Origin: an uncultured Lentisphaeraceae bacterium
Lineage (GTDB): Bacteria; Verrucomicrobiota; Kiritimatiellia; RFP12; UBA1067
Length of the DNA: 26,955 bases
NCBI GenBank assembly: GCA_964613265.1
Contig: CAZTHR010000002.1
Location: 1-26,955 of the forward strand
Direction: 5' to 3'
Within the stretch, counting starts at the first letter, position 1, and each line of letters begins with the position of its first letter. Under the pieces are notes generated by a model. The model searched no databases. It saw nothing but the letters and a program-made list of their open reading frames with translations, and had not been told where the DNA came from. Positions 38 through 15,201 of this stretch are shown here, piece by piece. The position numbers and the translations under genes are program-made.

Positions 38-64
38 TTGCAAATAAAAAAAAATGGGTATAAT
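38..64 (+). promoter_or_regulatory. sigma70-like promoter, TTGCAA-N15-TATAAT, with an A9 tract in the spacer
   Basis: TTGCAA at 38-43, perfect TATAAT at 59-64, A run at 46-54. It lies upstream of the SD-like GAAAGGTGG (95-103) and ATG 111. Confidence 0.7.
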
Positions 65-110
65 CGCTTCATCAACTGTTGAAAGCGTTTTTATGAAAGG
101 TGGTAGATCG

Positions 111-3100
111 ATGTTCATGCGGAAAACGATGAGTCTGTTCGGCGGGCTGGCGTTCGCCCTTGCGGCGGCGGGCGCGACGCGGACGTACACGTCCGCGCAG
201 ACGGTGTCCGACGAGCTGACGGGCAACGACGACGTGGTGGTGGATTGCGGCGCGGGCCAGTTCGTCACGTTCACGGGCGCGAACACGTTCACAGGTGGCG
301 TGACGGTCAAGTCCGGCGGTGTGATTGTCTCGAACGCCACCGCTCTCGGTACGGGGCAGATCAAATGCGCCAGTGGTACGGCCGTCCGCGTGTGCGTGAG
401 TTATCGCGGCACGGCGCAGACGCTCAACGAGGCCGTCATCGACCGCATTGAAGTCGGCAAGGCGGCGGACGGCGCGGACGAACCGTACGTCGCGTTCCAG
501 CTGACGGGTGACGGATTGGCGAACGACGTGGATTTCAGCCAGCAGCCATATCTGTGGTTGAGTGCGCCGGTCGCCAACGCGATTGCCTATCTGAACGGAC
601 ACTTCGAACCGTATGACAATGTCTACAAGTTCGGCTATTCGGGCGAGGCCGCCTGGTATGTGCGCGGCATCGTTGTGACGAACCTGACGGACGCGGCGGA
701 CGGCACGTCCCGTCGCGTGCTGCTGCGCGGCACGGGCACGACTTCGTTTGATTCCGGCGCGTCGTTCACGGGTGGCGTCCTCGTCGAGGGGCCGGCTCGC
801 ATCGCGCTCTGGAACGGCAGCGCCCTCGGCACGGGCGTGACGAACCGTCCGAACGACTTTCTCACGTTGCGGAACGGCGCCGGGTTGAACGTCAAAAACA
901 ACAGCCTCTCCTTGCCCGACACGCTGGGGCTTCGCTTCGAGGGAACGAACGACCTCCATTCGTGCGGTGCGACCAGAACCGTCTATACGACGGTGAAAGG
1001 CCCTGTGTCCGGCTGGGGCGAAATTCGTTTCACCGACCAGGGCGGCGTCTGGTTCACGAGTGCTAGTAACTCGTTCTCAGGCGCGTTGCGCGTAACCAAC
1101 GGACACCCCACATACGACGTCGAGATTCGTATCGGCGACGGCGCGAACTGCAGTTGGGCGGGAAGCGAGATCATCCAGCACGCCGATCGCCACAATCAGG
1201 TGTTTTCGATTAACTGTGATTCGGACTTCACGCTGAACACCGCGCTTTCGGCGACGGGCGGGCGCGTCACCAAGTTTGGACGCGGCACGTTGACGTTCGC
1301 GCAGCCGTTTAACCGCCAGCCGTTCGCCGCCGCGCCCGATCGGTCGGTCTTGCGGATTGCCGGCGGCACGGTGAAACTCGACCATCCGTGGAACGTGGTG
1401 CGCGAAGGGGCGATCGAGCTGGAGAACGGCGGGACGCTCGATCTGAACGGCACGGCGTCGACGCGCCTCCCGCTGCCGTACGGGAACGGCGCCGTCGTCG
1501 GCTTCCCCGACGGGGGCGTGACGTTCACGGGCACGACGTGGACGGACGCATCGTTCAACGGGCGTCTGGCGGGGGACGTGACGGTGGACATCGCGAGCGG
1601 AGCGGGCTGGCGGCTCGGTCCCGACACGGACGTCGAGGGGACGCTGAGTGTCGCCGTCGGACGCGTGGAACTTGCGGAGGGCGTGCATATCGCGGGCGAC
1701 TACGTGTCGAGCGCCACTGCGCGGACGTCCTTCCTCGGACGCGACGACGCGCAAATGACCGGATTGGGGCTGTCGGTCTGGTACAATATTTCGTGGGCGG
1801 ATCAGATGGACACGATGATGCAGAACGCCATCGACCATACCGCGACCACGTCGCCCAACTTCATCGGCGACATGGCGAAGTTCACGGAGGGATTCAAGAG
1901 CGGCACGAACGACAGCGCGGGCGGCAACAAGGGACCGTTGGTCGATACCATCGGCGGCTCAAAGGACAATTTTTTGGCGAAGTTCTACGGATCGTTCATT
2001 GCCGAGACGAACGGGACGTATGCGTTCCGCCTCCGCGCCGACGACGCGGCCAAGCTGATCATGGACGGAACGAACGTGGTGGTGAGCGTTGCGGCTGGTT
2101 CGGCCTCCACGACGCAGTCGGGGACGGTCGAGCTGACGGCGGGCCACCACCCGCTGACGGTCTGGTTCTGCGAGAGGATCGGTTGGGAAATCATCTGGGT
2201 TGAGATGAAGGCGCCGGGCGAGACGGAATGGTCGATTGTGCCGTTGCGCGTGCTGTCCGCCTGGAACGGACGCCATACGGAACTGCAGCGTGTGACGGGC
2301 GCGGGGACGCTGGAACTCGGTTCTGCGACGGCCGCGTGGCCGTCGGCGATGGATCTTACGGATTTCTCGGGCAGCCTTTTGGCGAACGCGCATTCGGCCG
2401 CGCCGTCAGCCGGGCGGGTCGTGCCGGCGGCCACATCGATTTCCTTCCTCAATCCGAACGGCCTGTTCGGCTCGAACTGGACGATGAAGGGGCAGGCGAC
2501 GGCGGTGTTCGATGCATCCGGCGCGGTGGTGGACCTTCTGCCGAGCGCGCGCACGAACGCCTACGGGTCGTTGAACACAGCCGCGCCGCTCGACCTGTCC
2601 AAACCGTTCACGTTCGCGTTCGACTATTCCATTCACGAACCGTGGGGTGCGCTGGGCGACGGGTTCTGTCTCGTCCTCCACGACGGGACGAAGGGGTATG
2701 CGAACGGCACGTTCAACTACACAGAGACGGGAAACCGCGTCAACGAACCGAGCGCCTACGGGATGCAGTTCTACCTGATGCCGAGGGACTCGATTTTCTC
2801 CTGGGTCAAGGATTGCAAGGGGCTGGGTGCGCCCGTGACGAACACGGTCTTTACCATGGAAAACATCCTGCGGACGCCTCTGCACGTGGAATGCGCGTGG
2901 GACTTGGAGAACCTAGTCGTCCGTCTGGAGATGGGAACGTCCACCTGGGTCTCGACGAATGCGCTTGCGGCGGCCGACCTGGCGGAGAAATTTCCCTCTG
3001 GCGCCCATCTGGGCGTATGGGGGCAGTGCGGCGGCTACTACACGGGAATGCGGCTTGACAACATCCGTCTCGACGTGTCGGGCGCCGTGTCCGGCGACAT

Positions 3101-3539
3101 GCCCGTCTGCACGTTCAACGGCGTGTTGGGCGTGACGAACGGCGTGTCGGACGTCCGCGTGGACGCGGGCGTGGCGGCGGAACTGGCGGCGGAACTGGAC
3201 GTCGTGGGCGTGGGCGGTCTTGCCGTGGTAGACGGATCTTCGGTGGCGTTGACGTCGCCTGTCTGGACGTTCGATCTGGCGAACCCCGCGTCCTGCCTGT
3301 CGCTGGCCGGTGCGTTTACGTTCCCGAACGCGGCGGAACGGCCGATCGTCGTCGAACTGCGCGGCGAACCGACACCGCGGACACGGATTCTTGCCGACTT
3401 GACGGGCCTCGCCGCCGACGCGGCCGCTGTGCCGGCATTCCGGTTGGGCGAAGGTTATCCCAGCTCCTACCGTCTCGTTTACGAGAACGGTTTTTTGCGC
3501 ATTTCCAATGCCGTCGGAACACTTTTGATCTTCCGCTGA
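111..3539 (+). CDS. large secreted adhesin/lectin-like protein: signal peptide, autotransporter-associated passenger (PATR-like) repeats, PA14 domain, L-type (legume/ConA-like) lectin domain, C-terminal GTLLIFR; no autotransporter barrel
   Basis: Start moved from 54 to ATG 111 because ATG 54 lies inside the promoter and an SD sits at 95-103. Signal peptide MFMRKTMSLFGGLAFALAAAGA. PATR-like FTGANTFTGGVTVKSG and KFGRGTLTF. PA14-like DNFLAKFYGSFIAETNGTYAFRLRADDAAKLIMDG...VELTAGHHPLTVWFCE (about 1760-2250). Lectin-like WTMKGQA...GSLNTAAPLDLSKPFTFAFDY...GDGFCLVLHD (about 2450-3080). Confidence 0.85.
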   Translation: MFMRKTMSLFGGLAFALAAAGATRTYTSAQTVSDELTGNDDVVVDCGAGQFVTFTGANTFTGGVTVKSGGVIVSNATALGTGQIKCASGTAVRVCVSYRGTAQTLNEAVIDRIEVGKAADGADEPYVAFQLTGDGLANDVDFSQQPYLWLSAPVANAIAYLNGHFEPYDNVYKFGYSGEAAWYVRGIVVTNLTDAADGTSRRVLLRGTGTTSFDSGASFTGGVLVEGPARIALWNGSALGTGVTNRPNDFLTLRNGAGLNVKNNSLSLPDTLGLRFEGTNDLHSCGATRTVYTTVKGPVSGWGEIRFTDQGGVWFTSASNSFSGALRVTNGHPTYDVEIRIGDGANCSWAGSEIIQHADRHNQVFSINCDSDFTLNTALSATGGRVTKFGRGTLTFAQPFNRQPFAAAPDRSVLRIAGGTVKLDHPWNVVREGAIELENGGTLDLNGTASTRLPLPYGNGAVVGFPDGGVTFTGTTWTDASFNGRLAGDVTVDIASGAGWRLGPDTDVEGTLSVAVGRVELAEGVHIAGDYVSSATARTSFLGRDDAQMTGLGLSVWYNISWADQMDTMMQNAIDHTATTSPNFIGDMAKFTEGFKSGTNDSAGGNKGPLVDTIGGSKDNFLAKFYGSFIAETNGTYAFRLRADDAAKLIMDGTNVVVSVAAGSASTTQSGTVELTAGHHPLTVWFCERIGWEIIWVEMKAPGETEWSIVPLRVLSAWNGRHTELQRVTGAGTLELGSATAAWPSAMDLTDFSGSLLANAHSAAPSAGRVVPAATSISFLNPNGLFGSNWTMKGQATAVFDASGAVVDLLPSARTNAYGSLNTAAPLDLSKPFTFAFDYSIHEPWGALGDGFCLVLHDGTKGYANGTFNYTETGNRVNEPSAYGMQFYLMPRDSIFSWVKDCKGLGAPVTNTVFTMENILRTPLHVECAWDLENLVVRLEMGTSTWVSTNALAAADLAEKFPSGAHLGVWGQCGGYYTGMRLDNIRLDVSGAVSGDMPVCTFNGVLGVTNGVSDVRVDAGVAAELAAELDVVGVGGLAVVDGSSVALTSPVWTFDLANPASCLSLAGAFTFPNAAERPIVVELRGEPTPRTRILADLTGLAADAAAVPAFRLGEGYPSSYRLVYENGFLRISNAVGTLLIFR

Positions 3540-3615
3540 TGTGCAGTCGTCCCATGTGTCGATGCGCGTGGACGTTAAGTTCGGCGGGGAGCTGCTGTAT
3601 TCGTACTCCGTCCGA

Positions 3616-3709
3616 TGTCCATCCTTTTTCTCACAGTGTCCAGTATTTGGCAAACGGGGTGGGGCGGACACCCCGTCGATTTTTGAGAATGTCCGTTATT
3701 ATGGCAAAC
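3616..3709 (+). promoter_or_regulatory. candidate regulator binding sites (TGTCC and TGTCC-N6/7-TGGCAAAC repeats) upstream of the second secreted-protein promoter
   Basis: TGTCC at 3616, 3637 (21 bp apart) and 3690, inverted copy GGACA at 3666. TGGCAAAC at 3648-3655 and 3702-3709. Confidence 0.35.
3654..3684 (+). terminator. possible weak intrinsic terminator downstream of the first secreted-protein gene
   Basis: 8-bp stem ACGGGGTG (3654-3661)/CACCCCGT (3669-3676), 7-nt loop, T5 at 3680-3684 offset by 3 nt. Confidence 0.35.
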
Positions 3710-3727
3710 TCGGTCTTGGCGAAGGGC

Positions 3728-3758
3728 TTGACGTGGAGAAAAAAAAAAATGCTATATT
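3728..3758 (+). promoter_or_regulatory. sigma70-like promoter, TTGACG-N19-TATATT (TGn extended -10), with an A11 tract in the spacer
   Basis: TTGACG 3728-3733, A run 3739-3749, TGC-TATATT 3750-3758. SD-like GAAAGGTGG at 3780-3788, identical to the one before the first gene. Confidence 0.7.
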
Positions 3759-3792
3759 GCCACCAAAATGACCCAACTAGAAAGGTGGCAAT

Positions 3793-6700
3793 ATGGCGAA
3801 CAAGCGGATATGTAGGTGGTGGCCGGCCCGTGCGGCCTGGTGCGCAGCGTTGTGCGGCGCGGCGTTGTGCGTCGTCAGGGCGGACGGCATTCCCGACGCG
3901 CCGTATGTGGACACGTGGACGAACAATGCGTCGGGAGCCGTCTCTTGGGAGGGGCACGGTTCATACTGGGCGTCCGGCACGGTTCCCGAAATCACCAACT
4001 CGATTCCCTACTCGACCAATCTGACGGTCTTCATCGACCATCAGCCGGAAGCTCCTAGCAATCTGCAGATCATCCAGGGTCCGTGGTCGAAGGAGTCCGG
4101 CGGCAATAACATTGCTTGGGCGTTGAACGCGCTTGTCGGCGGGCCGATGACGGCGTTTGAATTCTATTACGCCAGCTACTGTCGACCGTTGTTGATTCGC
4201 GATCCCTCGCGCTATCAGGGCGTTTGGCAGATTCGCGACGCCCACCAGTCTGGCGCATCGTCCGTCATGCAGCTTCTGTCTGACGCGACGTGGACGTCCA
4301 CGGTCAACCGCGTCAATCTTTCCGGCCGCATGGGTTTCCGTGTGCCGTCCGGTACGACGGCCGCGTTGGAGCATCCTTTTGGCGAGGGGGTCTTCGAGGT
4401 CAATCGCACGTATGGTGACCGTCCTTTCGTCAGGACGCCGACGGACGGCACGTTGGCGATTCTCAACTCGCCCGGCGGCGAGTCGTATCTGCGCGTCCGC
4501 AACGGGTTCGTTTCGCTCCACGGTCGCCTTGGCGGCGATTCTCCCGCCCTCGTCCCTGGCGCGGCTCTGCGTCTCGACGCCTCCGCCGCCGAGACGTTCA
4601 CGACCGACGTGGCGGACGGTCGGACGTTCGTGACGGACTGGCGCGACGCCGACGGCCGTGCGATTTCCGCCAAGTCCGTGGATTCGCTGGGGCGTCCCTC
4701 CCTCGCGACGGATGCCGCGACGGGAAAGCCTGTCATCGATTTCGGCAAGTACGGCGACAATACGCAGTTTGACGACCCGGTTCTCGGCCGGACGGCCTCG
4801 CTGAAACTCGATGTCCGGCTTGATGGCGTTCGCGAGCTTTTCGTCGTCTTCCGCGACAAGGAGGGTGGTACGACCCATCCGCAGTTCGTCGGCTGCTCGC
4901 TGAGAGAGGCCGATCGCATGTTCCTGCGCACGGGCAACGGTGAACTCTTCAACAACGAACATGTCTGCCAGATGCCGCTCCGTGCAGGTGAGATCCGCGT
5001 GAACGACCGTGCCGAACCGGCCAATGCGCCGGACGACTACACGCGCCGTCTGACCGTCGTTTCCGCCGGATTGAACACGAACTTCACACATGCCGTCGCG
5101 CCCGTCCAGTGGATCGCCGGCGCGGAGGAAACCGCACGTAACGGTGGCATCCAAATTGCCGAGCTCGTCCTTTACACGAACACGCTCACGACAGCCCAAC
5201 GGCGGCAGAACAACGCGGCGCTGATGCGCAAATGGCTTCCAGCGGCGGAGGCGGTACCGTGGGACTACGGCGCCGTGTGGTTCGACCAGAAAGACCCCGT
5301 GCTGGACGTGGCGGCGGGAACGGTGGCCGTGCGCGAACTGATGCTCGCCGACGGCACGCGGAAAATCGTGAAGACGGGCGCTGGTACGCTCGTGCTTAAG
5401 CGCATGACGCCCAACCGGTCCGACGTGCGCATTGAAGTCCGGGCGGGCAACGTGTGTTTCGTGGACGACGTGGAGAAGGCCGCCGACCCGCGTCCGGCCG
5501 CCGATCCGTTCTGCTGGTTCGACGCGACGGCGAAAGCGTCGTTCGTGATGGATGCGGCGGGAACGGGCATCGCCCAGTGGCGCGACCGGCGCGACGGTAC
5601 GAACCACTACGGACAGGTGCTCGCGCTGGCGCGGCCGAACGTGGAGAGTCCGCTGACGAATTCGGCCAAGACGCATCTCGCCTATCCGACGTTCGACGCG
5701 ACGGTGGCGGACGGGCGGGGCATGGTCGATCTGGGCGCGTTTTTGTCGAACACCAAAAACGTTTCGGATACAGGTGACACGTCAAGCCTCCGCCTCTACA
5801 AGGACGGCGTGATACAGGGCGTCGGCAACACGGACATGCGCGAAGGATATCTTGTCTACTACAAGAAGGTCGACGACGCGCAGTTCATCGGTTCGGACAA
5901 CTACATGGTCTTCCAGCTGACGGGCGACACGGGCTCGAAAGGCCTCATCGTCAAGGAACTCTACTGCCATACGCGGACGATCGGCGGATACTGGCGGTAT
6001 GACGGAAAGGTCGTTGACCCGTGCGCCTGTCCGAACACCGCGCAGGAAGTCCACATTCTTTCGTTCCGTCTCGCCCACAAGCTCGGCATCAATGCGTTTG
6101 CATCGGATCGCGGCAGTGCGCAGTGGCAGCTGGGCGGACTCAAGCTCGGCGAGGTGCTCTACTACGACCGTCTGCTGACCGATCAGGAGCGGCGCGACAC
6201 GGAAGCCTATCTCTTCCGCAAGTGGAAGGGGACGCCGCCTCCGCAGGACGAACACGCACCCTGCGCCGCGTCGCTTTGGCTGGCGCCGCAGACGGACGAT
6301 CCGGCGCTGGACAGCGTGGCGTCCGAGACACGCTATGCGGGTGTCGAGGGCGTGCTGGACGGCGTCCTCTCCTACACGGGCGCGGGGACGACCGTCTTCA
6401 CGAACGCGGCCACGTCGCGCGTACGGGCGATTGAGATGCGTGGCGGCGGTTCGCTCGATGTGACGATGGACTTTGACATTTGCTCCAACGCCTGGTTCCA
6501 TCTAGACGCCACCCGCGCCGACACGGTGGACTATTTCGCCGCGAACTCGAATGCCGTCGACGTCTGGCGCGACGTCCGCGCCGCCGATGTCTCCGCGTCG
6601 GCGATCCTCAAGGGGCGCAGGGCGCGTCCGTTCCGCTGCGAGACGGACGTCAATGGAACAGACCGGCGGATGCCGGTGATCGACTTCGGAGACTGGTACA

Positions 6701-7611
6701 ACGGCAACGGACCGACGAACGCCGCCGCCTCCATGGAGTGGAGCGCGCGGACGGCGCTGCGGGAGTTCTACATTGTCCAGCGCGACAAGGGACTGCACCG
6801 GCCGGATGCGGAGGGCGGCGCGGAAATCAAGGGCTATCCGTGCCTGTTCGGACAGCTTAAGCAAAACACGAAGGACGACGGCGACTACTACAAGGCGGAT
6901 TCGGACCAGATTGCGTTCTACCGCAATACCAAGAGCCTTCTTACGGAATGGGCGACGCCGCGTGTGTATCACGGTTACATCGGCGTGAACGGCGAGACGA
7001 AGTACGGGGAGTTCGTGCCGGCTACGAACACGTTCTACGTCTACAGTTTCCAGCCGACGGGCGCCGTCCACCATGTACAGACGTTTGCGCGGCGCGACAG
7101 CTATCAGGTCGGCGGGCAGCAGATTGGCGAGATGGTCTGCTTTGCGCAGACGAACACGGTGGAACGGCGGACGGAGATCGAGAACTATCTGATGCGCAAG
7201 TGGTTCGGCCCGACGGCGGGCGCGGCCGCGACGTGGCGGATGGACGCCGTGACGTTCCACGACGCGGCGGAACTGACGGTGCGTGTGCCGGCGTGGCAGA
7301 AACTCGCCGTCGGGTCGTTCGCATTCGTCTTCGACGGCACGTCCGTCGGACATTTCACCGTGGACGGTACGTTCGTGCTGCCAGAGACGGGGACGTGGAC
7401 GGTCGATCTTGCCGCCGATCGCGAACGGGTGGCGTACGGCGTCTATCCGCTCCTGACGGCGACGAACGCGGAAGGGCTGAACAACCTTGACAACTGGACG
7501 AAGACGTTCACGCGGAGCGGCACAGCGAACGTCGCGGCCCGTCTGCGGAAGACGGCGACTGGCGTGTCGCTCGTCGTCTCGCCCGCCGGTACGCTGCTGA
7601 TTCTTCGATAG
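3793..7611 (+). CDS. large secreted protein with three LamG/ConA-like jelly-roll repeats separated by passenger-like beta segments, C-terminal GTLLILR; no autotransporter barrel
   Basis: Signal peptide MANKRICRWWPARAAWCAALCGAALCVVRA. Three copies of the pattern [LF]DA...WRD...P[VM][IV]D[FL]G...GG.[QK][IL][AG]E...[ML]RKW. PATR-like KIVKTGAGTLVL between repeats 1 and 2. Confidence 0.85.
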   Translation: MANKRICRWWPARAAWCAALCGAALCVVRADGIPDAPYVDTWTNNASGAVSWEGHGSYWASGTVPEITNSIPYSTNLTVFIDHQPEAPSNLQIIQGPWSKESGGNNIAWALNALVGGPMTAFEFYYASYCRPLLIRDPSRYQGVWQIRDAHQSGASSVMQLLSDATWTSTVNRVNLSGRMGFRVPSGTTAALEHPFGEGVFEVNRTYGDRPFVRTPTDGTLAILNSPGGESYLRVRNGFVSLHGRLGGDSPALVPGAALRLDASAAETFTTDVADGRTFVTDWRDADGRAISAKSVDSLGRPSLATDAATGKPVIDFGKYGDNTQFDDPVLGRTASLKLDVRLDGVRELFVVFRDKEGGTTHPQFVGCSLREADRMFLRTGNGELFNNEHVCQMPLRAGEIRVNDRAEPANAPDDYTRRLTVVSAGLNTNFTHAVAPVQWIAGAEETARNGGIQIAELVLYTNTLTTAQRRQNNAALMRKWLPAAEAVPWDYGAVWFDQKDPVLDVAAGTVAVRELMLADGTRKIVKTGAGTLVLKRMTPNRSDVRIEVRAGNVCFVDDVEKAADPRPAADPFCWFDATAKASFVMDAAGTGIAQWRDRRDGTNHYGQVLALARPNVESPLTNSAKTHLAYPTFDATVADGRGMVDLGAFLSNTKNVSDTGDTSSLRLYKDGVIQGVGNTDMREGYLVYYKKVDDAQFIGSDNYMVFQLTGDTGSKGLIVKELYCHTRTIGGYWRYDGKVVDPCACPNTAQEVHILSFRLAHKLGINAFASDRGSAQWQLGGLKLGEVLYYDRLLTDQERRDTEAYLFRKWKGTPPPQDEHAPCAASLWLAPQTDDPALDSVASETRYAGVEGVLDGVLSYTGAGTTVFTNAATSRVRAIEMRGGGSLDVTMDFDICSNAWFHLDATRADTVDYFAANSNAVDVWRDVRAADVSASAILKGRRARPFRCETDVNGTDRRMPVIDFGDWYNGNGPTNAAASMEWSARTALREFYIVQRDKGLHRPDAEGGAEIKGYPCLFGQLKQNTKDDGDYYKADSDQIAFYRNTKSLLTEWATPRVYHGYIGVNGETKYGEFVPATNTFYVYSFQPTGAVHHVQTFARRDSYQVGGQQIGEMVCFAQTNTVERRTEIENYLMRKWFGPTAGAAATWRMDAVTFHDAAELTVRVPAWQKLAVGSFAFVFDGTSVGHFTVDGTFVLPETGTWTVDLAADRERVAYGVYPLLTATNAEGLNNLDNWTKTFTRSGTANVAARLRKTATGVSLVVSPAGTLLILR
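4543..7203 (+). repeat. three diverged internal protein-domain repeats (about 4543-5235, 5488-6225, 6481-7203)
   Basis: The repeats end in AALMRKW, AYLFRKW and NYLMRKW and begin with LRLDAS, CWFDAT and FHLDAT. Similarity is visible at the protein level only. Confidence 0.75.
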
Positions 7612-7631
7612 GCCGTATGGGCAAGCCTCCG

Positions 7632-7673
7632 TGCGGAACTAAATGCGTTGAATTGGATGCATTTAGTTCCGCA
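7632..7673. repeat. perfect 15-bp inverted repeat with a 12-nt spacer
   Basis: TGCGGAACTAAATGC (7632-7646) / GCATTTAGTTCCGCA (7659-7673). No U-tract on either side. Confidence 0.9.
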
Positions 7674-7715
7674 AACGACAGGGAAAATTATTTTCGCATT
7701 CACGGAAATTACGGC

Positions 7716-7744
7716 TTGCCGACGGGGACGGGTTTTGATATACT
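7716..7744 (+). promoter_or_regulatory. tRNA promoter, TTGCCG-N17-TATACT with extended -10; AT-rich palindrome GAAAAT-T-ATTTTC (7683-7695) upstream, UP-element-like
   Basis: TTGCCG 7716-7721, TG 7736-7737, TATACT 7739-7744. Canonical 17-nt spacing, 17 nt before the tRNA 5' end. Confidence 0.75.
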
Positions 7745-7761
7745 ACTCCCCGTTTTCAGAT

Positions 7762-7838
7762 GGCGAGAGTAGCTCAATTGGTAGAGCATCAGATTGTGGA
7801 TCTGAGGGTTGCGGGATCGTGCCCCGTCTCTTGCCCCA
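7762..7838 (+). tRNA. tRNA-His (anticodon GTG) with encoded G-1, C73 and CCA
   Basis: Folded by hand: acceptor GCGAGAG/CTCTTGC, D arm GCTC/GAGC, anticodon arm TCAGA-TTGTGGA-TCTGA, T arm GCGGG-ATCGTGC-CCCGT, CCA at 7836-7838. Confidence 0.95.
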
Positions 7839-7844
7839 AATTCT

Positions 7845-7872
7845 CCGTCCGGGGCTTAGCCGGGCGGTTTTT
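7845..7872 (+). terminator. intrinsic terminator after tRNA-His
   Basis: Stem CCGTCCGG/CCGGGCGG (8 bp, one G-U), 7-nt loop, followed by TTTTTCCTTTC. Confidence 0.65.
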
Positions 7873-7892
7873 CCTTTCAAAGGAGTCGTGGC

Positions 7893-9428
7893 ATGACGGA
7901 CAAGGCGCTGCTTGAACAGTATCTGCGCAGGATTCTCAACTCGAACGTCTACGATGTGGCGATTGAAAGTCCGTTGGAGGAGGCGGTCGCGTTGTCCGCC
8001 AAACGGGGGAACACGTTTCTGCTCAAGCGCGAAGATCTGCAGTGTGTGCATTCGTTCAAACTGCGCGGCGCCTACAACAAGATGTCGCGTCTGTCCGTCG
8101 ACGCGCTCCAGAAGGGCGTTTTGGCGGCGTCGGCGGGCAATCATGCGCAGGGTGTGGCGCTGAGCGCGCGCAAGCTTGGTTGCAAGGCCACCATCGTCAT
8201 GCCAGTGACGACGCCGGAAATCAAGATTGCGTCCGTCAAGAGCCTTGGCGCGTCCATCGTTCTCGCGGGCGATTCCTATTCCGACGCGGCGGCGGAGGCG
8301 GCGCGTCTCGTGAAGGAACAGGCGTTTACGTTCATTCCGCCGTACGATGATCCGGATGTCATTGCCGGGCAGGGGACGGTGGCGATGGAGATTCTGCGCC
8401 AGCGGCCGGGGAAACTGGACGCCGTCTTCGTCCCCGTCGGCGGCGGCGGATTTGCGGCCGGTGTGGCCGTCTACATCAAGGCCGTTCGTCCGTCTGTCAA
8501 AGTCTACGGTGTCGAACCGGTCGATTCGGATTGCATGGATCGCTCGATCAAGGCGGGCCGGCGCGTTGAACTTTCCGAAGTTGGGCTTTTTGCCGACGGC
8601 GTGGCTGTGAAGAAGCCGGGCAAGATCACGTACGACCTTTGTCGACGCTTTTTGGACGGCATCGTCCGTGTGACGACGGACGAAACGTGTGCGGCGATCA
8701 AGGACATTTTCGAGGCGACACGTGCCATTTGCGAACCGGCCGGCGCGCTGGCGCTCGCGGCCGCCAAACAGCACGCCGCGAAGAAGGGGGCGCAGGGCGA
8801 AACGTACGCCTGCATCATCTCCGGCGCGAACATGAACTTCGACCGCATACGTTTTGTCTGCGAACAGACGGAGATCGGTGAACGGCGCGAGGCCATCTTG
8901 GAGTGCCGTATCCCCGAAGAACGTGGCGCGTTCAAGGCGTTCATCCGCCATCTCGGCAAACGCAACGTGACGGAATTCAACTACCGCTATTTCGATCCCG
9001 ACAAGGCCTACGTGTTCGTAGGGTTGTCCGTGGCCGATCGCTCGGAGACGCGGCAGATCATTCAGCAGTTGGCGAATGCGCGGATTGGAACGATTGACTT
9101 GTCCGAGGACGCGCTCGCCAAGGAGCACATTCGCCACATGGTGGGCGGCCACACGCGCGGCATCCACGACGAAGTGGTCTACACATTCGAGTTCCCGGAG
9201 CGGCCGGGCGCGTTGGCGGACTTTTTGGAGGCCATCTCGAATTCCTGGAACATTACCCTCTTCCACTACCGCAACCACGGCGCCGACCATGGAAAGGTTC
9301 TTGTCGGACTTCAGGTGCCGAAGAAGGAACGGGCGGCATTCACGCGAACGCTGCGTGCGCTCGGCTACGTGTTCAAGGAGGTTTCGTCCAACCCGGCGTA
9401 TCGCCTTTTCCTTGGCAACCGCGACTAA
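7893..9428 (+). CDS. ilvA: threonine ammonia-lyase, biosynthetic (long form with two C-terminal regulatory ACT-like domains)
   Basis: LKREDLQCVHSFKLRGAYNKM (PLP lysine), ASAGNHAQGVA, GQGTVAMEIL, VPVGGGG, ISGANMNFDR, IPEERGAF and FEFPERPGAL...FHYRNHGAD regulatory repeats. SD AAGGAG upstream. Confidence 0.97.
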   Translation: MTDKALLEQYLRRILNSNVYDVAIESPLEEAVALSAKRGNTFLLKREDLQCVHSFKLRGAYNKMSRLSVDALQKGVLAASAGNHAQGVALSARKLGCKATIVMPVTTPEIKIASVKSLGASIVLAGDSYSDAAAEAARLVKEQAFTFIPPYDDPDVIAGQGTVAMEILRQRPGKLDAVFVPVGGGGFAAGVAVYIKAVRPSVKVYGVEPVDSDCMDRSIKAGRRVELSEVGLFADGVAVKKPGKITYDLCRRFLDGIVRVTTDETCAAIKDIFEATRAICEPAGALALAAAKQHAAKKGAQGETYACIISGANMNFDRIRFVCEQTEIGERREAILECRIPEERGAFKAFIRHLGKRNVTEFNYRYFDPDKAYVFVGLSVADRSETRQIIQQLANARIGTIDLSEDALAKEHIRHMVGGHTRGIHDEVVYTFEFPERPGALADFLEAISNSWNITLFHYRNHGADHGKVLVGLQVPKKERAAFTRTLRALGYVFKEVSSNPAYRLFLGNRD

Positions 9429-10114
9429 TCGCCGCGATATTTGCCGCGACAGTTGCTACAGAAGAAATCCGGGCCCGCCCAGGTCGTTTCCTCCTCGTGG
9501 CCGCATTTCTTGCAGACGCGCAGGGTGCGTTCGCGGACGAGGCGTACTTCCTCGGCGTGGTCGTCTAGATAGAGCGGCGGGAAATCGTTGACCCGCGTTT
9601 TGGAGAAAAGGGTCTGGTTGAACGGGACGGGTTTACCGTCCGGGTTGTGGAAGCCGACGACTTGGATGCGCTTGCCGAAGAGGCGGGCGCGGCGAATCGC
9701 AGGGAGATAGGCGATGTCGTCGCTCAGCAGGATTGCCACATCGTAGGCCGACGGCTGCGCGGCGTAGAACAGAAGGGAGGCGGCAAGGGACATCTTGATC
9801 CAGTTTTCGTCGTCGCCACCGTCGAGTTCGTGGATTTCCGTTTCATAGCCACAGTTCTTTTCGAGGAAGTCGTAGAACGAATACTGCTTGGCCGCACTGA
9901 AGCCGGCACGGGACGGCGGAAGCGTCCCGAAGTAGAGCGTCCGCACAAGAGACACATCCTCGTCCAGACGGTCTGCGACATCTTCGCAGAAAATCTTCGG
10001 GAGTTTCTGGTAGTCGATTTCAAACCCGTTCGTTTCGTTCAAACGTGCGAACAAGGCGGTTCGGCCACGATAAAGCCACCCGCCGTCGATAAACACCATC
10101 GCCTTGACTGACAT
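9425..10114 (-). CDS. NYN/LabA/DUF88 (PIN-like) domain protein with a C-terminal CxxC-x14-CxxC zinc ribbon; active site appears degenerate
   Basis: MVFIDGGWLY, LVRTLYFGT, YDVAILLSDDIAYLPAIRRARLFGKRIQVVGF, C-terminal CKKCGH...FFCSNCR. SD GAGGGA upstream. Confidence 0.8.
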   Translation of the reverse strand: MSVKAMVFIDGGWLYRGRTALFARLNETNGFEIDYQKLPKIFCEDVADRLDEDVSLVRTLYFGTLPPSRAGFSAAKQYSFYDFLEKNCGYETEIHELDGGDDENWIKMSLAASLLFYAAQPSAYDVAILLSDDIAYLPAIRRARLFGKRIQVVGFHNPDGKPVPFNQTLFSKTRVNDFPPLYLDDHAEEVRLVRERTLRVCKKCGHEEETTWAGPDFFCSNCRGKYRGD

Positions 10115-10153
10115 CTGTCATCCCTCGGTTTACGATACGCTATATGTGATGAT

Positions 10154-11212
10154 CTATTTGCTTTCCGGCAGATTGATACGCCAGGGAATTGAATCGTCGT
10201 CGCCTTTCCCAACGTCGAGAATTTCCGTTTTCGGCGCCGCGGTCGTGCGGGTCGATGCGGCGGCCGCCGCCTTGGGCGGTTGCGCCGGCGCAGACGGGGC
10301 CGGGACGTCTTTCCGCTTGGCAGTGCGCGTTTTCTTGAGCAGAGCCTCCAACTCAGGATCGTCCGCCTCGGCGTCCTTGAAGTAGTCGATCGCGCCGTTC
10401 GTCCCCGCAGCGGATTTCGAAGCCGGCGGCAACGGGGCGGCTTTGGCCGGCGGCGGGGGCGGAACGTCTGTTTGCAGCGGCGCAACGGCAGGTTTCGGCG
10501 GGGGCGGCGGCGGGAGAGCCGCTTGGGCGGCGGCCGCCGCGTTCAACGCATCCTGCCGTGCATAATATTCGGGATAGAGACGGCGACGCTGCTGTTCAAG
10601 GATGGCCTTGCTCCGATCCTCTTTTAGTTTCTGGCGTTCGGCCTTGATGCGTTCGCGTTCCGCTTGAAGCGCATCCTGCTGGCGGCGGAGTTCTTCTTTG
10701 AGGCGAATGGCCTCAAGGGATTCCGACAACGCGGTGGGCGACGGCGCGGCCACGACCGGAGCGGCGGGCTGGGCAGCCTGTTTGGAAAGCGCCGTGGCCA
10801 ACGACTCGATTTTCTCCAAAAGCGGTTTCAAGACTTTCGCGTCCGAAGATTCCGCCTGCGCCGGGGTAGCGGGCTGGGGTACGGGCGGCTGGACGACGAC
10901 CGGCGGCTGTTGGACTGGCGCGGGGCGTTCACGCAACGCGATGTCCAGCAGACGGTCGTTCAGCGACTGGTTGCGGTTGATGACGGCCACGACCACGAGC
11001 GTGAACGTTACGACGACAACCACGAGGAGGACGACGAAGAAAACCGAGAGACCAAGCATTCGTTTGCGGGCCTTGGCCTGTTCGGCGTTGAGATATTCCT
11101 GGAACGCTTTCAGGACGGGAAAGTCGTTGGCGCTCGCGCCGGATTGGTCGAAGAGGCTGACGGCCGACGGCTGCGGCGGAACCTGCTGCGGATCTTGTGT
11201 TGTCTCGGTCAT
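10154..11212 (-). CDS. hypothetical bitopic membrane protein with a coiled coil and Pro/Ala-rich linkers
   Basis: One hydrophobic segment (MLGLSVFFVVLLVVVVVTFTLVVVAVI) after a basic patch, heptad-like EAIRLKEELRRQQDALQAERERIKAERQKLKE, poly-Pro tracts. Has its own SD and promoter. Confidence 0.8.
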   Translation of the reverse strand: MTETTQDPQQVPPQPSAVSLFDQSGASANDFPVLKAFQEYLNAEQAKARKRMLGLSVFFVVLLVVVVVTFTLVVVAVINRNQSLNDRLLDIALRERPAPVQQPPVVVQPPVPQPATPAQAESSDAKVLKPLLEKIESLATALSKQAAQPAAPVVAAPSPTALSESLEAIRLKEELRRQQDALQAERERIKAERQKLKEDRSKAILEQQRRRLYPEYYARQDALNAAAAAQAALPPPPPPKPAVAPLQTDVPPPPPAKAAPLPPASKSAAGTNGAIDYFKDAEADDPELEALLKKTRTAKRKDVPAPSAPAQPPKAAAAASTRTTAAPKTEILDVGKGDDDSIPWRINLPESK

Positions 11213-11236
11213 ATCTTCCTTTCTAAAACATCGAAC

Positions 11237-11265
11237 ATTTTAGCATGGTAAGCCCTCTTTTGCAA
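11237..11265 (-). promoter_or_regulatory. sigma70-like promoter for the membrane hypothetical/NYN genes, TTGCAA-N17-TAAAAT with TGn
   Basis: Minus strand reads TTGCAA aagagggcttaccatgc TAAAAT. Confidence 0.7.
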
Positions 11266-11275
11266 CCCCCGCTTG

Positions 11276-11284
11276 TGGTATACT
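11276..11284 (+). promoter_or_regulatory. extended -10 promoter element TGgTATACT for pfkA
   Basis: TG-G-TATACT at 11276-11284, about 50 nt upstream of the pfkA ATG. No good -35 at 17-nt spacing. Confidence 0.55.
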
Positions 11285-11335
11285 ATGTGCCGTTTTTCAA
11301 CGCGGCCGCTGGTTCGGCCATCGGAGACACGACAC

Positions 11336-12703
11336 ATGAATTCGACACTTGAAAAAATCGCGGCCCACCCGGAGGTCTACTCCTGTCTGGTCGATTCCCT
11401 GGGCGAATGCAAGATCCTTTCGCCCATCCGCCACCACGATTTCATCCAGGAAGGCGAGCGCGTCCTTCTCACCGAACACGTCCCGCTGCGCGACTGGTTG
11501 CAGAAGAAGCTCGGCCATGAACCGACGTTCGAGCGCGCCGGTCCGCACGAAAAGATTTTCCACGACCCCAGCTGGACGCGCGTGGGCATCTTGACAGCGG
11601 GCGGCATCTGCCCCGGTCTCAACAACGTCATCAAGGGCCTCGTCGAAATCCTTTCCTTTGACTACGGCATCAAGACGATCTACGGTATCCGCTTCGGTTA
11701 CGCGGGGCTGAGTCCGCGTTTCGGTTATCCGCCGATCATGCTGAATCCGGACGTGGTGGACACGATTCACGAGGTCGGCGGCACGATTCTGGGTTCTTCG
11801 CGCGGGCAGCAGCCGACGGAGGAGATGGTGGACACGCTCGTGCGGATGAACATCAACGTCTTGTTCTGCATCGGCGGCGACGGTTCGCTGCGGTGCGCGC
11901 GCGACATTGCGGAGGAATGCCGGCGGCGCAAGTTGTCGATTTCCGTCATCGGCGTTCCCAAGACCATCGACAACGATCTCCAGTTCGTGGGGCCGAGTTT
12001 CGGTTTCGAGACGGCCGTGGCGGAGGCGACGGGCGTGATTCGGAGCGCCCACGTCGAAGCGCGTGGCACGTTCAACGGTATTGGTCTTGTCAAGCTGATG
12101 GGGCGCGATTCCGGCTTCATCGCCGCCAGCGCCACCGTGTCGAACCCCGTGGTGAACTTCTGTCTCATTCCCGAAGTCGATTTCGAGATGGACGGCCCGC
12201 ACGGCTTGCTGGCCGCTCTTGAACGTCGTTTCGCGAGCGGCAAGACGCATACCGTCGTCGTTGTGGCCGAGGGCGCGGGGCAGAAGCTCGTCGAAGGTGT
12301 CGAGGAACGGGACGCGAGTGGCAACATTCTCAAGAAGGACATCGGCGAGTTCATCAAGCGCCGCATCACGCGTCATTTCAAGGACAAAGGCATCGTCTCC
12401 AGCGTCAAGTATTTCGACCCCAGTTATATGATTCGCAGCGTGCCCGCGCGTGGGACGGACGCCATTCGCTGCTACATGCTCGCCCGTAACGCCGTCCACG
12501 CCGCGATGGCGGGACGCACGAACTGCGTCGTCGGCAGCGTGGGCGAATGGTATACGGTTGTGCCGATCAAGTTGGCGACGATCGAACGTCAGAAGGTGCT
12601 CGTACACAGCGACCTCTGGCGCAGCGTGATTGATGCGACAGGGCAGGAATTCTACTTTTCGACGGATGGCGAAACGCCGCGCGGCGACATGATGGCGCCG
12701 TGA
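11336..12703 (+). CDS. pfkA: 6-phosphofructokinase, probably ATP-dependent clade-X type (G104/K124 signature)
   Basis: ILTAGGICPGLNNVI, GGTILGSSRG, IGGDGSLR, GVPKTIDND, FGFETAV, VKLMGRDSGFIA, YFDPSYMIRSVPA. Start moved to ATG 11336 (SD GGAGA at 11323-11327). Confidence 0.92.
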   Translation: MNSTLEKIAAHPEVYSCLVDSLGECKILSPIRHHDFIQEGERVLLTEHVPLRDWLQKKLGHEPTFERAGPHEKIFHDPSWTRVGILTAGGICPGLNNVIKGLVEILSFDYGIKTIYGIRFGYAGLSPRFGYPPIMLNPDVVDTIHEVGGTILGSSRGQQPTEEMVDTLVRMNINVLFCIGGDGSLRCARDIAEECRRRKLSISVIGVPKTIDNDLQFVGPSFGFETAVAEATGVIRSAHVEARGTFNGIGLVKLMGRDSGFIAASATVSNPVVNFCLIPEVDFEMDGPHGLLAALERRFASGKTHTVVVVAEGAGQKLVEGVEERDASGNILKKDIGEFIKRRITRHFKDKGIVSSVKYFDPSYMIRSVPARGTDAIRCYMLARNAVHAAMAGRTNCVVGSVGEWYTVVPIKLATIERQKVLVHSDLWRSVIDATGQEFYFSTDGETPRGDMMAP

Positions 12704-12717
12704 CGCGGAGGATTCGT

Positions 12718-13575
12718 ATGACCGACGACTATGAACTGATCGATGCCGGCGACGGACGCAAGTACGAGCGTTTCGGCAACATCTCGCTCGTCCGGCCCTG
12801 TTCCCAGGCGCTTTGGCGGCCGCACGATCCTGCGTCCTGGCGTCAGGCGACGGCGAGTTTCGACCGCGAGGAAGGCAACCACTGGCATGGCCGTCAGGCT
12901 CTGCCCGCGTCGTGGACGATTCGCACGGCGGGGATCGCGTTCAAACTGCTGGGGACGGATTTTGGCCATCTCGGCATCTTCCCCGAACAACGCGCACAAT
13001 GGAACTGGATTCGCGAAACCGTCCGTGTCGCCCAGTCTGCCCGTACGGCGGACGCGCCGCGCGTTTCGGTGCTCAACCTGTTCGCTTACTCGGGTGGCAG
13101 CACGATCGCCGCCGCGCAGGGCGGCGCGGAGGTCTGCCATCTGGACGCCTCGAAGGGCATGGTGCAGTGGGCGCGGGAAAACGCCGCGTTGAACGGTCTG
13201 GCCGACCATCCCATCCGCTGGATTGTGGACGACGCGCACAAATTCATGCGTCGTGAAGCACGGCGCGGGCGGCGGTATGATGCGGTGATTTTCGATCCTC
13301 CCACATTCGGGCGCGGCGCGAACGGCGAGATGTACAAGATTGAACGCGACTTGCAGGAGACGCTTGCGCTCGTGCGCGACGTTCTCTCCGAGCGTCCGCT
13401 GTTCGTTCTCTTCTCCTCGCATACGCCCGGCCTTTCCTGCTGCGTGGCCGAGAACATTGTGTCTCAGGCGTTCGGCGTCTCCCGCGTGGAAAGCGGCGAA
13501 ATGCTACTTGAACCGGCGCCGGGGCGGGATACGTCGCCGTGTCCGTCCGGCATTTATTGCCGGGGGATTTTTTGA
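12718..13575 (+). CDS. class I SAM-dependent methyltransferase, RlmI/RlmK-like family
   Basis: DYELIDAGDGRKYERFG, HLGIFPEQ, VLNLFAYSGGST, CHLDASKGMV, RWIVDDA, YDAVIFDPPTFGRG. SD GGAGGA at 12707-12712 supports ATG 12718. Confidence 0.85.
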   Translation: MTDDYELIDAGDGRKYERFGNISLVRPCSQALWRPHDPASWRQATASFDREEGNHWHGRQALPASWTIRTAGIAFKLLGTDFGHLGIFPEQRAQWNWIRETVRVAQSARTADAPRVSVLNLFAYSGGSTIAAAQGGAEVCHLDASKGMVQWARENAALNGLADHPIRWIVDDAHKFMRREARRGRRYDAVIFDPPTFGRGANGEMYKIERDLQETLALVRDVLSERPLFVLFSSHTPGLSCCVAENIVSQAFGVSRVESGEMLLEPAPGRDTSPCPSGIYCRGIF

Positions 13576-13581
13576 TATAAT
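13573..13581 (+). promoter_or_regulatory. extended -10 promoter element TGaTATAAT overlapping the methyltransferase stop codon
   Basis: The TGA stop at 13573-13575 supplies TGn; TATAAT at 13576-13581. The exosortase ATG is only 9 nt further on, with no SD. Confidence 0.55.
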
Positions 13582-13590
13582 CCTTGATCT

Positions 13591-15201
13591 ATGAGACGGT
13601 TTCTTTCATCTCCGCGCGGGGGGCTGTTCCTCGCGACGGTCGTGCTTTTGTTGTTCGGGTTCGCCGGCATGTTCCAGCGGATCATGCAACTCTTTGCCGC
13701 GCCGGACGAGGATTTGTCGTATGGGTGGTTCGTGCCCGTCTTTTCGCTTTTTGTGCTGTGGACGCGGCGGCGTGAGTTGGTGGCGGCCGCGACGGCGGGT
13801 GCGCCCTCGTGGGGCGGTTTGGCGGCGTGTCTGCCGTGTCTCGTTCTCGCGGTTCTGGGAACGCGCGGCCTGCAGGTCCGCTTCGAGCAGCTTGGGTTCA
13901 TCGGCCTTTGCATCACCGTGCCGTGGGCGTTCTTCGGACGTGCCGTGGCGAAGATCTGCGTCTTCCCCGCGCTCTACCTGCTCTTCACGATTCCGCTCGC
14001 GACCTTCCTCGACGTGGTGACGATCCATTTGCGTCTCCTTGCCTGTTCAACGGCGCTTGCGGTGCTGAACGGTATCGGCGTGGAAGTCGTGCAGCAGGGG
14101 ACGGCGATCCTCTCTCAGGGGGCGCATCCGTTTTCAATCGACGTGGCGGAGCCGTGTTCGGGGCTGCGTTCGCTTTTTGCGCTCATGGCGTTGACGGCGG
14201 CCTACGCCTGGTTCACGCAATCGGGCTTTCTGCGTCGTGCGTTGCTCTTCGCCTGTTCGATTCCGCTGGCCGTCTTGGGGAACGTCATGCGCATTGTGAC
14301 AATCTGCCTCGTGGCGGCGGGGGCGGATCCCGATTTCGCAACGGGGTTCTACCACGACTATTCGGGCTACATCGTCTTTCTCGTCGCCATCCTCTGCATG
14401 GTGGGCTGTGGCGAGTTGATCGGGCGAATGCCCGTACGGGCGCACCGGACGGACGCGCCGGACGTATCTCCGGTTCGTCCATCGACAGGTCGTCGCGGAA
14501 TCGTCGTGCCTCTTGCGGCGTCTCTGGTGTTGGGTTCGCTGGCGCTCTTTCAGGCCACGACGCCCAAATCCACCCTCGCCGAAGCGCCGGCCATTTCGCT
14601 GCCGCGCAACGTGCCGGGGCATGTGGACGACGGTTTGCGTTTCTGCCACAACGAGACGTGTCTCCAGTGCGTGACCCTCGCCGAGTTGAACGGCGCGACG
14701 GCGTGTCCGACGTGCGGCGGTGACCTTTTCCACGTGTCGCTGGGCGAGAAGACGTTGCTGCCGGCGGATACAAAGCTCGAAAAGCGCACGTATCGGAATG
14801 CGCACGGCCAGCATTTCCTCGTCAGCGTCGTCATCGGCGGCGCGAGCAAGAGTTCCATCCACCGCCCCGAACTCTGTTTGCCGACTCAGGGTTTCCTCAT
14901 GGCCGACCCCGCGAACTTCGCGGTGGACGGCATTCCGTTCCACGCCATTCATCTGGCGAACAAGCAGATGCCGACGTCCATGCTGGCCTATACGTTCTTC
15001 AACCAGGCGGGGATGCGGACGGCTTCGCACACGCGGCGCATTTTGCAGGACGTTCTGGACCGATCGTTCCTGAACCGCATCGACCGCTGGGTGATGGTGT
15101 CTGTCCAGGCCTCCTCCGCAGCGGGGTTTTCGCTCGATCGGGCGGCGGATCGACAGGCGCTTGAGGCGTTCCTCTCGCAGATGATGAAAGGGTTGCGGTG
15201 A
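13591..15201 (+). CDS. exosortase (EpsH family) fused to an EpsI-like domain containing a Cys-rich insertion
   Basis: Multi-TM N-terminal half with DEDLSYGWFVP, catalytic triad motifs VAEPCSGLRSL (Cys), GNVMRI (Arg) and FYHDYSG (His). EpsI-like KRTYRN...VSVVIGG...SIHRPELCLPTQGF. Confidence 0.9.
   Translation: MRRFLSSPRGGLFLATVVLLLFGFAGMFQRIMQLFAAPDEDLSYGWFVPVFSLFVLWTRRRELVAAATAGAPSWGGLAACLPCLVLAVLGTRGLQVRFEQLGFIGLCITVPWAFFGRAVAKICVFPALYLLFTIPLATFLDVVTIHLRLLACSTALAVLNGIGVEVVQQGTAILSQGAHPFSIDVAEPCSGLRSLFALMALTAAYAWFTQSGFLRRALLFACSIPLAVLGNVMRIVTICLVAAGADPDFATGFYHDYSGYIVFLVAILCMVGCGELIGRMPVRAHRTDAPDVSPVRPSTGRRGIVVPLAASLVLGSLALFQATTPKSTLAEAPAISLPRNVPGHVDDGLRFCHNETCLQCVTLAELNGATACPTCGGDLFHVSLGEKTLLPADTKLEKRTYRNAHGQHFLVSVVIGGASKSSIHRPELCLPTQGFLMADPANFAVDGIPFHAIHLANKQMPTSMLAYTFFNQAGMRTASHTRRILQDVLDRSFLNRIDRWVMVSVQASSAAGFSLDRAADRQALEAFLSQMMKGLR

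Follow-up and report, generated by a model that had tools for sequence, protein, structure and literature searches.

The window analysed in this work is the whole stretch of 26,955 nucleotides of contig CAZTHR010000002.1 (assembly GCA_964613265.1), which carries the genes of two large proteins, P0001 and P0002, ending in nearly the same seven residues. An earlier note on this DNA had described the shared heptapeptide, GTLLI[FL]R followed by a stop codon, and its presence at both protein ends was confirmed at positions 3516-3539 and 7588-7611. The two tags are encoded by GGA ACA CTT TTG ATC TTC CGC TGA and GGT ACG CTG CTG ATT CTT CGA TAG respectively, and all the six residues that they have in common differ in codon, in agreement with the proposal that the conservation lies at the protein level. 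P0001 and P0002 were placed in separate BLAST groups, and both carry a Sec-type signal peptide at the N-terminus, as had been reported. The CE7-like and GDPD proteins of the window, described as devoid of the motif, end in fact in ...GREPNL and ...AKTIRK.

The occurrence of the tag was then evaluated in the genome of the window (G000; 2.2 Mb in 320 contigs, 62% G+C, 93.7% estimated completeness). Genes were called by the G+C content of the third codon position, lists of longest open reading frames (ORFs) being unreliable in this GC-rich genome; the procedure, which missed two genes in the window, returned 1642 genes, 1531 of them with an intact 3' end. Gene ends were searched for the pattern ([GSAP]x or xT)-h4-[RK], where h is a hydrophobic residue, and the expected number was calculated from the internal frequency of the same pattern. 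The tag was found at the end of 30 genes out of 1531 against an expected value of 0.21, thus excluding chance as the cause of the shared tail. A narrower pattern, G-[TLFG]-h4-[RK], gave 22 terminal matches in ORFs of at least 150 amino acids (aa) and 19 internal ones, mostly in spurious frames, while the DNA pattern for G-T-h4-R-stop returned 19 matches and the reversed control pattern none. About 2% of the G000 proteins are tagged; 28 of the 30 tags end in R and two in K.

The tagged proteins showed a median length of 913 aa versus 344 aa for all genes, and a signal-peptide-like N-terminus, assigned by a rough rule, was present in 10 of the 14 tagged genes that are complete at the 5' end as compared with 24% of all genes, which bears out the enrichment that the earlier note had proposed to look for. 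Besides, the tail is not confined to two paralogues, the outcome that would have spoken against a general signal. When the last ten residues were removed, the 27 tagged proteins of at least 200 aa fell into 18 groups by whole-protein BLAST, and the 200 residues preceding the tail formed 20 similarity groups, so that the 30 genes belong to about 18-20 groups. Their domains are accordingly varied, including PA14/lectin, three Laminin_G_3 modules, GDPD plus a PATR beta-helix and BspA-type leucine-rich repeats (LRR). The tagged set mostly consists of very large, Sec-exported proteins that are non-catalytic or glycan-binding.

Sixteen of the 30 tagged genes are cut at the 5' side by a contig end, versus 12% of all genes. 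They occur on contigs including C208, C210, C226, C250, C170, C243, C255 and C282, with more on C90, C289, C153, C200, C55, C300 and others; the tagged genes break the assembly, perhaps because of repeats or of variation between strains. Separately, an ORF of 1279 aa on contig C134 (2415-6254) matches four consecutive shorter ORFs on C111 (1-3834), and the C111 copy is possibly frameshifted or decayed.

The conservation of the tail was assessed in the relatives of the two proteins. P0002 has 33 relatives from independent assemblies, 29 at 53-89% identity and four more distant, all of which end exactly at the C-terminus in [GSA]-[TSM]-h-h-h-h-[RQ]. Similarly, the 25 relatives of P0001 (48-99% identity), two of which are named 'Kiritimatiellia bacterium' by NCBI, all end in G-T-x-h-h-h-R, and the G, T and R of tag 1 are invariant in 13 P0001 orthologues. 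The linker in front of the tail varies in both alignments, while G, T (or S) and R stay constant. A logo calculated from 87 tags of three genomes (G000, G029 and G259) showed P at position -9 in 37% of the cases, G at -7 in 89%, T at -6 in 87% and R at -1 in 98%, with the four residues between T and R drawn from L/I/V/F/M. The consensus of the tag is (P)-x-G-T-[LV]-[LIF]-[LI]-[LIVF]-R-COOH. The tag is strictly terminal, common to unrelated proteins and kept in orthologues despite drift of the flanking sequence. The DNA of the window occurs in animal gut and faeces metagenomes.

The coordinates of the two genes and of the related features are collected in Table 1. The P0001 ORF extends from 54 to 3539 and encodes 1161 aa, or 1142 aa from a start at 111. 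Since the orthologues begin with MFMRKTMSLF, whose Met matches position 111, the annotated start at 54 is probably 57 bases too far upstream. Pfam searches of P0001 returned a PA14 domain match (1.1e-9) and, below the cut-off, an L-type lectin match and a PATR match (16.8 versus 27 bits). P0002 consists of 1272 aa and showed no Pfam or NCBIfam match over the whole protein; its three jellyroll modules, each ending in ...YL.RKW, appear LamG-like by eye. The passenger-like beta repeats attributed to the two proteins by the earlier note are thus weakly supported by domain searches; the absence of a translocator barrel was verified, as no match to PF03797 occurred in P0001 or P0002 and none above the cut-off in the genome. 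The terminator-like hairpin located between the two genes suggests that they are separate transcription units.

Table 1. Location of the two tagged genes, their terminal elements and related features. Coordinates refer to the window unless a contig is given.
Feature	Location	Strand	Description
P0001 gene, tagged protein 1	111..3539	+	signal peptide, PA14, L-type-lectin-like domain, terminal beta domain, tag
P0001 last folded domain, beta-rich	3102..3509	+	residues ~1017-1152; last strand GFLRIS (AlphaFold2)
Tag 1, G-T-L-L-I-F-R	3516..3536	+	TGA directly after at 3537-3539
Terminator-like hairpin and T-run	3654..3686	+	between P0001 and P0002 genes; consensus match only
P0002 gene, tagged protein 2	3793..7611	+	signal peptide, three jellyroll modules, beta-solenoid-like C-terminal domain, tag
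P0002 C-terminal folded domain, all-beta	7222..7584	+	residues ~1144-1264; AlphaFold2 pLDDT 85-96
Tag 2, G-T-L-L-I-L-R	7588..7608	+	TAG directly after at 7609-7611
Type IV filament cluster	G000 contig C13, ~6000-17700 (locus L068)		two unusually large pilin-like proteins, 387 and 342 aa

The structural context of the tail was investigated by AlphaFold2 predictions run with orthologue alignments on the C-terminal regions of P0001 (residues 800-1161) and P0002 (residues 880-1272). The P0001 model showed a mean predicted local distance difference test (pLDDT) value of 81.4, with the last strand, GFLRIS, at model positions 348-353. Residues 356-362, corresponding exactly to GTLLIFR, were modelled as coil with pLDDT below 50. 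In the P0002 model (mean pLDDT 75.7), the confidently modelled last domain ends in the strand ATGVSLVV and the final eight residues are coil. In both proteins the tail is therefore predicted to hang free of the folded protein.

Domain and structure searches were extended to the region preceding the tail. The last 80 aa of 22 paralogues gave no consistent Pfam-A or NCBIfam match even at E values up to 10. The possibility, raised beforehand, that the motif is simply the last strand of a defined domain thus found no support, as no domain model covers this region and the tail lies outside the AlphaFold2 fold. A Foldseek comparison of the P0002 model with the PDB returned nothing significant, the best partial matches, moderately probable, being the beta-helix or autotransporter-passenger structures 7jvi and 3h09. 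A hidden Markov model (HMM) of the last 130 residues also matched internal segments of P0002 and of other tagged proteins and gave no match to the terminal region of P0001. Since the HMM recognises these internal segments, the domain preceding the tail in many members is a further unit of their own beta-solenoid stalk. Full-text literature searches returned no description of this tail.

The phyletic distribution of the tag was examined by scanning genomes with the DNA pattern for G-T-h4-R-stop, using the same pattern backwards as a control (0-2 matches per strand). Up to 72 matches per genome were found in the genus of the window. The pattern gave 47 matches in the 99%-complete G029, 34 in G031, 23 in G038, 22 in G028 and 18 in G039. 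The tag is abundant in several families of the order to which the window belongs. Among 201 genomes sampled across the phylum, the pattern was at background outside the class. A class-wide sample identified further tag-rich lineages outside the order of the window, which add a second, independent order: G259 with 43 matches versus 3 for the control, and G282 with 17 versus 3. Family f11, of the same order as the window, gave 0 matches in 12 genomes, genera g9 and g16 were at background, and with wider patterns f11 (G034 and G084), family f3 (G026 and G036), G032 and G090 were all at background as well. Some tag-free and tag-rich genomes fall within a single family, as G032 does with G039 and G090 with the genome of the window. 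The tag is confined to particular lineages of Kiritimatiellae.

The scans also revealed dialects. G019 and G021, two genomes of the window's genus, contain only 7 and 5 G-T tails respectively, and 50 and 45 G-x tails versus 12 and 6 for the controls, mostly in the form G-[FLM]-M-I-I-V-R. Elsewhere, as in G000, G022, G029 and G259, the dialect is G-T-[LV]-h-h-h-R. Each genome uses one dialect across its tagged proteins of every family. This uniformity within a genome, together with the difference between species, is what a shared, co-evolving reader predicts, and the species dialects would imply such a reader.

Two sets of repeated tails were distinguished from the tag. In G029, at least 10 sites (among them C2:213810, C2:659234 and C3:265655) share the identical 24-mer GGCGCCGTGATCCTTCTGCGGTAG, ending in G-A-V-I-L-L-R-stop, which the wide tag pattern picks up falsely and which probably closes a multi-copy gene of a mobile element. 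In G291, a genome otherwise at background, a near-identical 24-mer encoding G-T-[ML]-F-I-I-R-stop ends eight ORFs on 8 contigs (for example C6:2649 and C112:16205); it belongs to a multi-copy gene family or element and is not the general tag.

On these grounds we consider it probable, on balance, that the heptapeptide is a self-standing C-terminal tag for docking or sorting that is read by a second protein. Five properties taken together suggest that a second protein reads the peptide and that the free C-terminus serves as the anchor: the distance to the free carboxylate is fixed, the hydrophobic core can form a strand, the peptide is disordered when the protein is free, many unrelated exported proteins carry it, and the dialects differ between species. 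The tagged proteins would be exported by Sec and a second protein in the cell envelope would then read the tail, which would most likely pair, as an added beta-strand, with an exposed sheet edge or groove on this acceptor (beta-strand augmentation), in a register set by the terminal Arg and the free carboxylate. Adhesin- and lectin-like proteins would in this way be held at, or delivered to, the cell surface. The earlier note had proposed a lineage-specific signal for export or surface anchoring; the tail proved to be terminal, lineage-restricted and present on unrelated exported proteins, while for export or anchoring no machinery was found and this role stands as our interpretation.

A precedent for such a mechanism is the PilC/PilY1 plug, a 12-residue C-terminal peptide, disordered alone, that docks onto the minor pilin PilK by beta-strand augmentation and that belongs to one protein family, endowed with a beta-propeller domain, with PilK as its one partner (Denic et al. 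2026, bioRxiv 10.64898/2026.09.18.752573). Because the plug is the closest worked example, a pilin-like acceptor would be, by analogy, the leading specific candidate; nothing found singles it out.

Candidates for the reader were searched for among the components of the cell envelope. An exosortase-EpsI fusion is encoded at window positions 13591-15201, 6 kb downstream, and scores below the cut-off of every named exosortase type. Exosortases occur in 41 of the 41 relatives, including the tag-free G026, G034 and G036, and canonical PEP-CTERM proteins, about 200 aa long, are present in 36 of the 41 and coexist with the tag; an exosortase was consequently discarded as the reader. The relatives carry 1-17 small PEP-CTERM proteins each, and the TIGR02595 (PEP-CTERM) model returned nothing in G000 at E values up to 1; the exosortase substrates of G000 may lie in the unassembled part of the genome.

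As for the secretins, G000 has six secretin genes and its relatives 2-8 per genome. A hint of a tag-linked clade, C13/C34, appeared when 45 secretins of five tag-rich and five tag-poor genomes were arranged in a maximum-likelihood tree. A dedicated secretin or type II secretion system (T2SS) was nevertheless rejected, as C34-type orthologues at 50-63% identity are present in the tag-free G032, G090 and G293, while the tag-rich G259 and G282 give only 27-30% matches to the C34-type, and the two classes of genome can be told apart neither by the number of their secretins nor by orthogroup. No extra Omp85/TpsB paralogue was detected either. G000 has a single Omp85, the same number as the tag-free G032 and G090, so that there is no dedicated TpsB-like reader. 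Stand-alone autotransporter barrels were not found in the tag-rich genomes, with only a sub-threshold fragment of 18 bits in G000; among the 41 relatives, PF03797 barrels were observed only in the tag-free family f3 (G026:C148:1738-2472 and G036:C1:38144-38908).

The search for components of type IX secretion (T9SS) covered the C25 peptidase, PF01364, only. A PorU-like C25 peptidase looked promising on 5 genomes, but no correlation with the tag was observed across 41, PF01364 being not found in the tag-rich G000, G022 and G013 and present in the tag-free G026 and G036. Gene neighbourhoods were inspected in the tagged contigs of G000 and in 40 regions, each of 10-20 kb, surrounding tags of G029 and G259. 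No conserved neighbour specific to tagged genes was identified in the G000 contigs, and the recurrent neighbours near tags belong to generic families only (GFO/IDH/MocA, ABC ATPases, MatE and LeuA).

G000 carries about 11 pilin-like genes, none of which was found beside a tagged gene. The C13 cluster listed in Table 1 also encodes GspF, a secretin and two ATPases, one GspE/PilB-like with an MshEN domain and the other PilT-like, and it contains several ORFs without a Pfam match. On contig C24 (8316-14390, locus L070), the gene of a 2024-aa protein containing 18 bacterial TSP3 (calcium-binding) repeats has as neighbours a pilin-like gene and one for a PilT-like ATPase. The PilY1 domain, PF05567, gave no match in P0001 or P0002 and none above the cut-off in the 41 relatives, in a search that also matched none of 14 control genomes.

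Several results weigh against a tag read by a second protein. The reader was not found, every candidate tested having failed to track the tag, and no tag-specific neighbour recurred in the 60 regions of three genomes; the reader may be a universal envelope component. Moreover, the AlphaFold2 models cover C-terminal fragments only, and a contact of the tail with the N-terminal part of the same protein is possible. Finally, four consecutive hydrophobic residues suit a fully buried strand and could equally represent a self-association or lipid-facing element.

The plug-like version of the docking hypothesis, in which a tip minor pilin, of either a type IV pilus or a T2SS pseudopilus, would gain a strand from the tail and many interchangeable adhesins or lectins would replace the single PilY1, is a specific form of the interpretation that we favour and, in these particular terms, seems rather unlikely. 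The lectin- or adhesin-like character of the tagged proteins, as for the PilC N-terminus, and the free tail in the single-protein models are consistent with it, and G000 is equipped with six secretins, the pilin-like genes and the C13 filament cluster with its PilT-like ATPase and unusually large pilin-like proteins. The lack of a PilY1 domain above the cut-off in the relatives would also fit a replacement of PilY1, with the limit that this search matched none of the 14 controls. However, pilin genes and tagged genes were not found as neighbours, none of the secretin orthogroups follows the tag, and the C34/C13 secretins are found in tag-free genomes (G032, G090 and G293) with no orthologue-level match in G259 and G282. 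The same secretin data bear on a T2SS export signal, according to which the pseudopilus tip or the GspC/secretin entry would recognise the tail and the proteins would be released rather than anchored. Large, folded, Sec-exported proteins do need an outer-membrane route, and each relative genome has its secretins; on the other hand, secretin number and orthogroup fail to separate tag-rich from tag-free genomes, the tag occurs on only about 30 of roughly 316 signal-peptide-like proteins, and the tagged set is mainly adhesin- or lectin-like instead of enzymatic, all of which leaves little probability to an export signal of this kind. We regard as improbable, although slightly less so, an element resembling the beta-signal of outer-membrane proteins (OMPs), read at the lateral gate by BamA or by another barrel that would tether or translocate barrel-less passengers. 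The tail recalls the OMP beta-signal, being a C-terminal strand whose Gly lies at a constant distance from the end, the proteins are passenger-like yet lack a barrel, and classical autotransporter barrels occur only in the tag-free family f3. Nevertheless, the tag ends in Arg or Lys in 30 cases out of 30 and never in an aromatic residue, its hydrophobic residues are consecutive and not alternating, the OMP-like ORFs of G000 itself end in the canonical ...x-F/W, and the count of Omp85 is the same as in tag-free genomes.

Other explanations dispense with a dedicated docking partner. An intramolecular or self-assembly role, by which the tail would cap or complete its own beta-helix in the full-length protein, or pair with another copy by strand exchange into oligomers or fibres, is as doubtful as the T2SS signal. 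The tail resembles the G-x-G-T-L-x-L strand of PATR repeats, as exemplified by KTGAGTLVLK inside P0002; furthermore, the HMM of the last 130 aa matches internal segments of the same proteins, and four hydrophobic residues in a row suit a buried strand. Against this, the same tail ends 20 unrelated C-terminal groups, including LRR and PA14/lectin proteins, AlphaFold2 leaves it unpacked even beside a confidently modelled domain, and dialects that are uniform within a genome across unrelated proteins favour a single common partner. A periplasmic quality-control degron, or PDZ ligand for Prc/Tsp or DegP-type proteases marking proteins stuck in the periplasm, appears very improbable: PDZ domains are known to bind free hydrophobic C-termini by beta-augmentation, but a hydrophobic residue, and not Arg, is the usual last residue of PDZ and Tsp ligands, and lineage restriction, dialects and limitation to giant adhesin-like proteins are not expected of a degron. 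The hypothesis of a variant substrate signal for the exosortase of the window is nearly refuted. It drew on the presence of the exosortase-EpsI fusion and on the lack of a PEP-CTERM match in G000, whereas 4-5 hydrophobic residues and one basic residue cannot span a membrane, and among the relatives exosortases extend to tag-free genomes and genuine PEP-CTERM proteins stand beside the tag.

Returning to a tag read by a second protein, a bolder formulation can be put forward as a tentative possibility, to which we give less than even credit. Kiritimatiellae of the gut and rumen might use the heptapeptide as the address label in a surface-display system, many-to-one and previously unknown, in which a single envelope acceptor, pilin-like or otherwise, would capture dozens of interchangeable giant lectins and adhesins through a seven-residue donor strand, tag and acceptor co-evolving into species-specific dialects. 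If true, this would represent a minimal, cellulosome-like docking code, reusable as a tiny display tag. The tag marks the largest glycan-binding and adhesin-like proteins of an abundant and almost uncultured animal-gut group, and finding the reader would explain how these bacteria arm their surface and could yield a seven-residue display or docking tag. Short C-terminal signals have led to their machines before, LPXTG to sortase, PEP-CTERM to exosortase, GlyGly-CTERM to rhombosortase and the T9SS C-terminal domain (CTD) to the T9SS. The map of tag-rich and tag-free genomes and the G-T versus G-[FLM]-M dialects make the search for the reader computationally testable.

The tag was finally compared with known C-terminal signals, and it fits none of the classes considered, namely PEP-CTERM, GlyGly-CTERM, the OMP beta-signal and the T9SS CTD, supporting the misfit claimed beforehand for these four. 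PEP-CTERM signals (TIGR02595, PF07589) combine a PEP motif with a transmembrane helix, about 20 residues long, and a basic, Arg-rich cluster. Like the tag, they are lineage-restricted, occur on many unrelated exported proteins of one genome and are common on PATR beta-helix proteins of the PVC group. However, the tag has no PEP motif, transmembrane helix or basic cluster, and the two systems coexist in the relatives. The OMP beta-signal, read by BAM, shows a terminal aromatic residue and an alternating hydrophobic pattern and closes a barrel; the tag shares with it a terminal beta-strand and a Gly at a fixed distance from the free C-terminus, but it ends in Arg after consecutive hydrophobic residues, in proteins without a barrel, while the OMP-like ORFs of G000 end in ...YDF, ...YKW and ...YRF, as in the canonical beta-signal. 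Classical autotransporters (type Va secretion, T5aSS) are defined by a C-terminal translocator barrel of 12 strands (PF03797). The T9SS CTD of Bacteroidota, for which dedicated HMMs exist, folds into a beta-sandwich of 70-100 aa and is, like the tag, a many-to-one C-terminal marker of large surface proteins and enzymes; by contrast, only 7-9 residues are common to the tagged proteins, no CTD model matched and PorU-type C25 peptidases do not track the tag. Type I secretion, characterised by the absence of an N-terminal signal peptide and by export directly out of the cytoplasm, does not correspond to the present case, as P0001, P0002 and 10 of the 14 intact tagged proteins carry Sec-type signal peptides.

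Two docking systems were also compared with the tag. The PilC/PilY1 plug resembles it in being very short, in standing at the very C-terminal end of a huge Sec-exported adhesin and in being free in the single-protein model, and the disorder that characterises it in the free protein is predicted here for the last 7-8 residues of P0001 and P0002, which were modelled as coil. Unlike the plug, the tag ends dozens of unrelated proteins per genome, and no PilY1 domain (PF05567 / IPR008707) was found. Nor was a scaffold with repeated acceptor modules found. Dockerins fold into a calcium-binding domain of about 70 aa and have a known scaffold, whereas the tag is a heptapeptide; conceptually, the dockerin-cohesin pair of the cellulosome resembles the tag in that many exported proteins carry one small C-terminal module for a shared acceptor.

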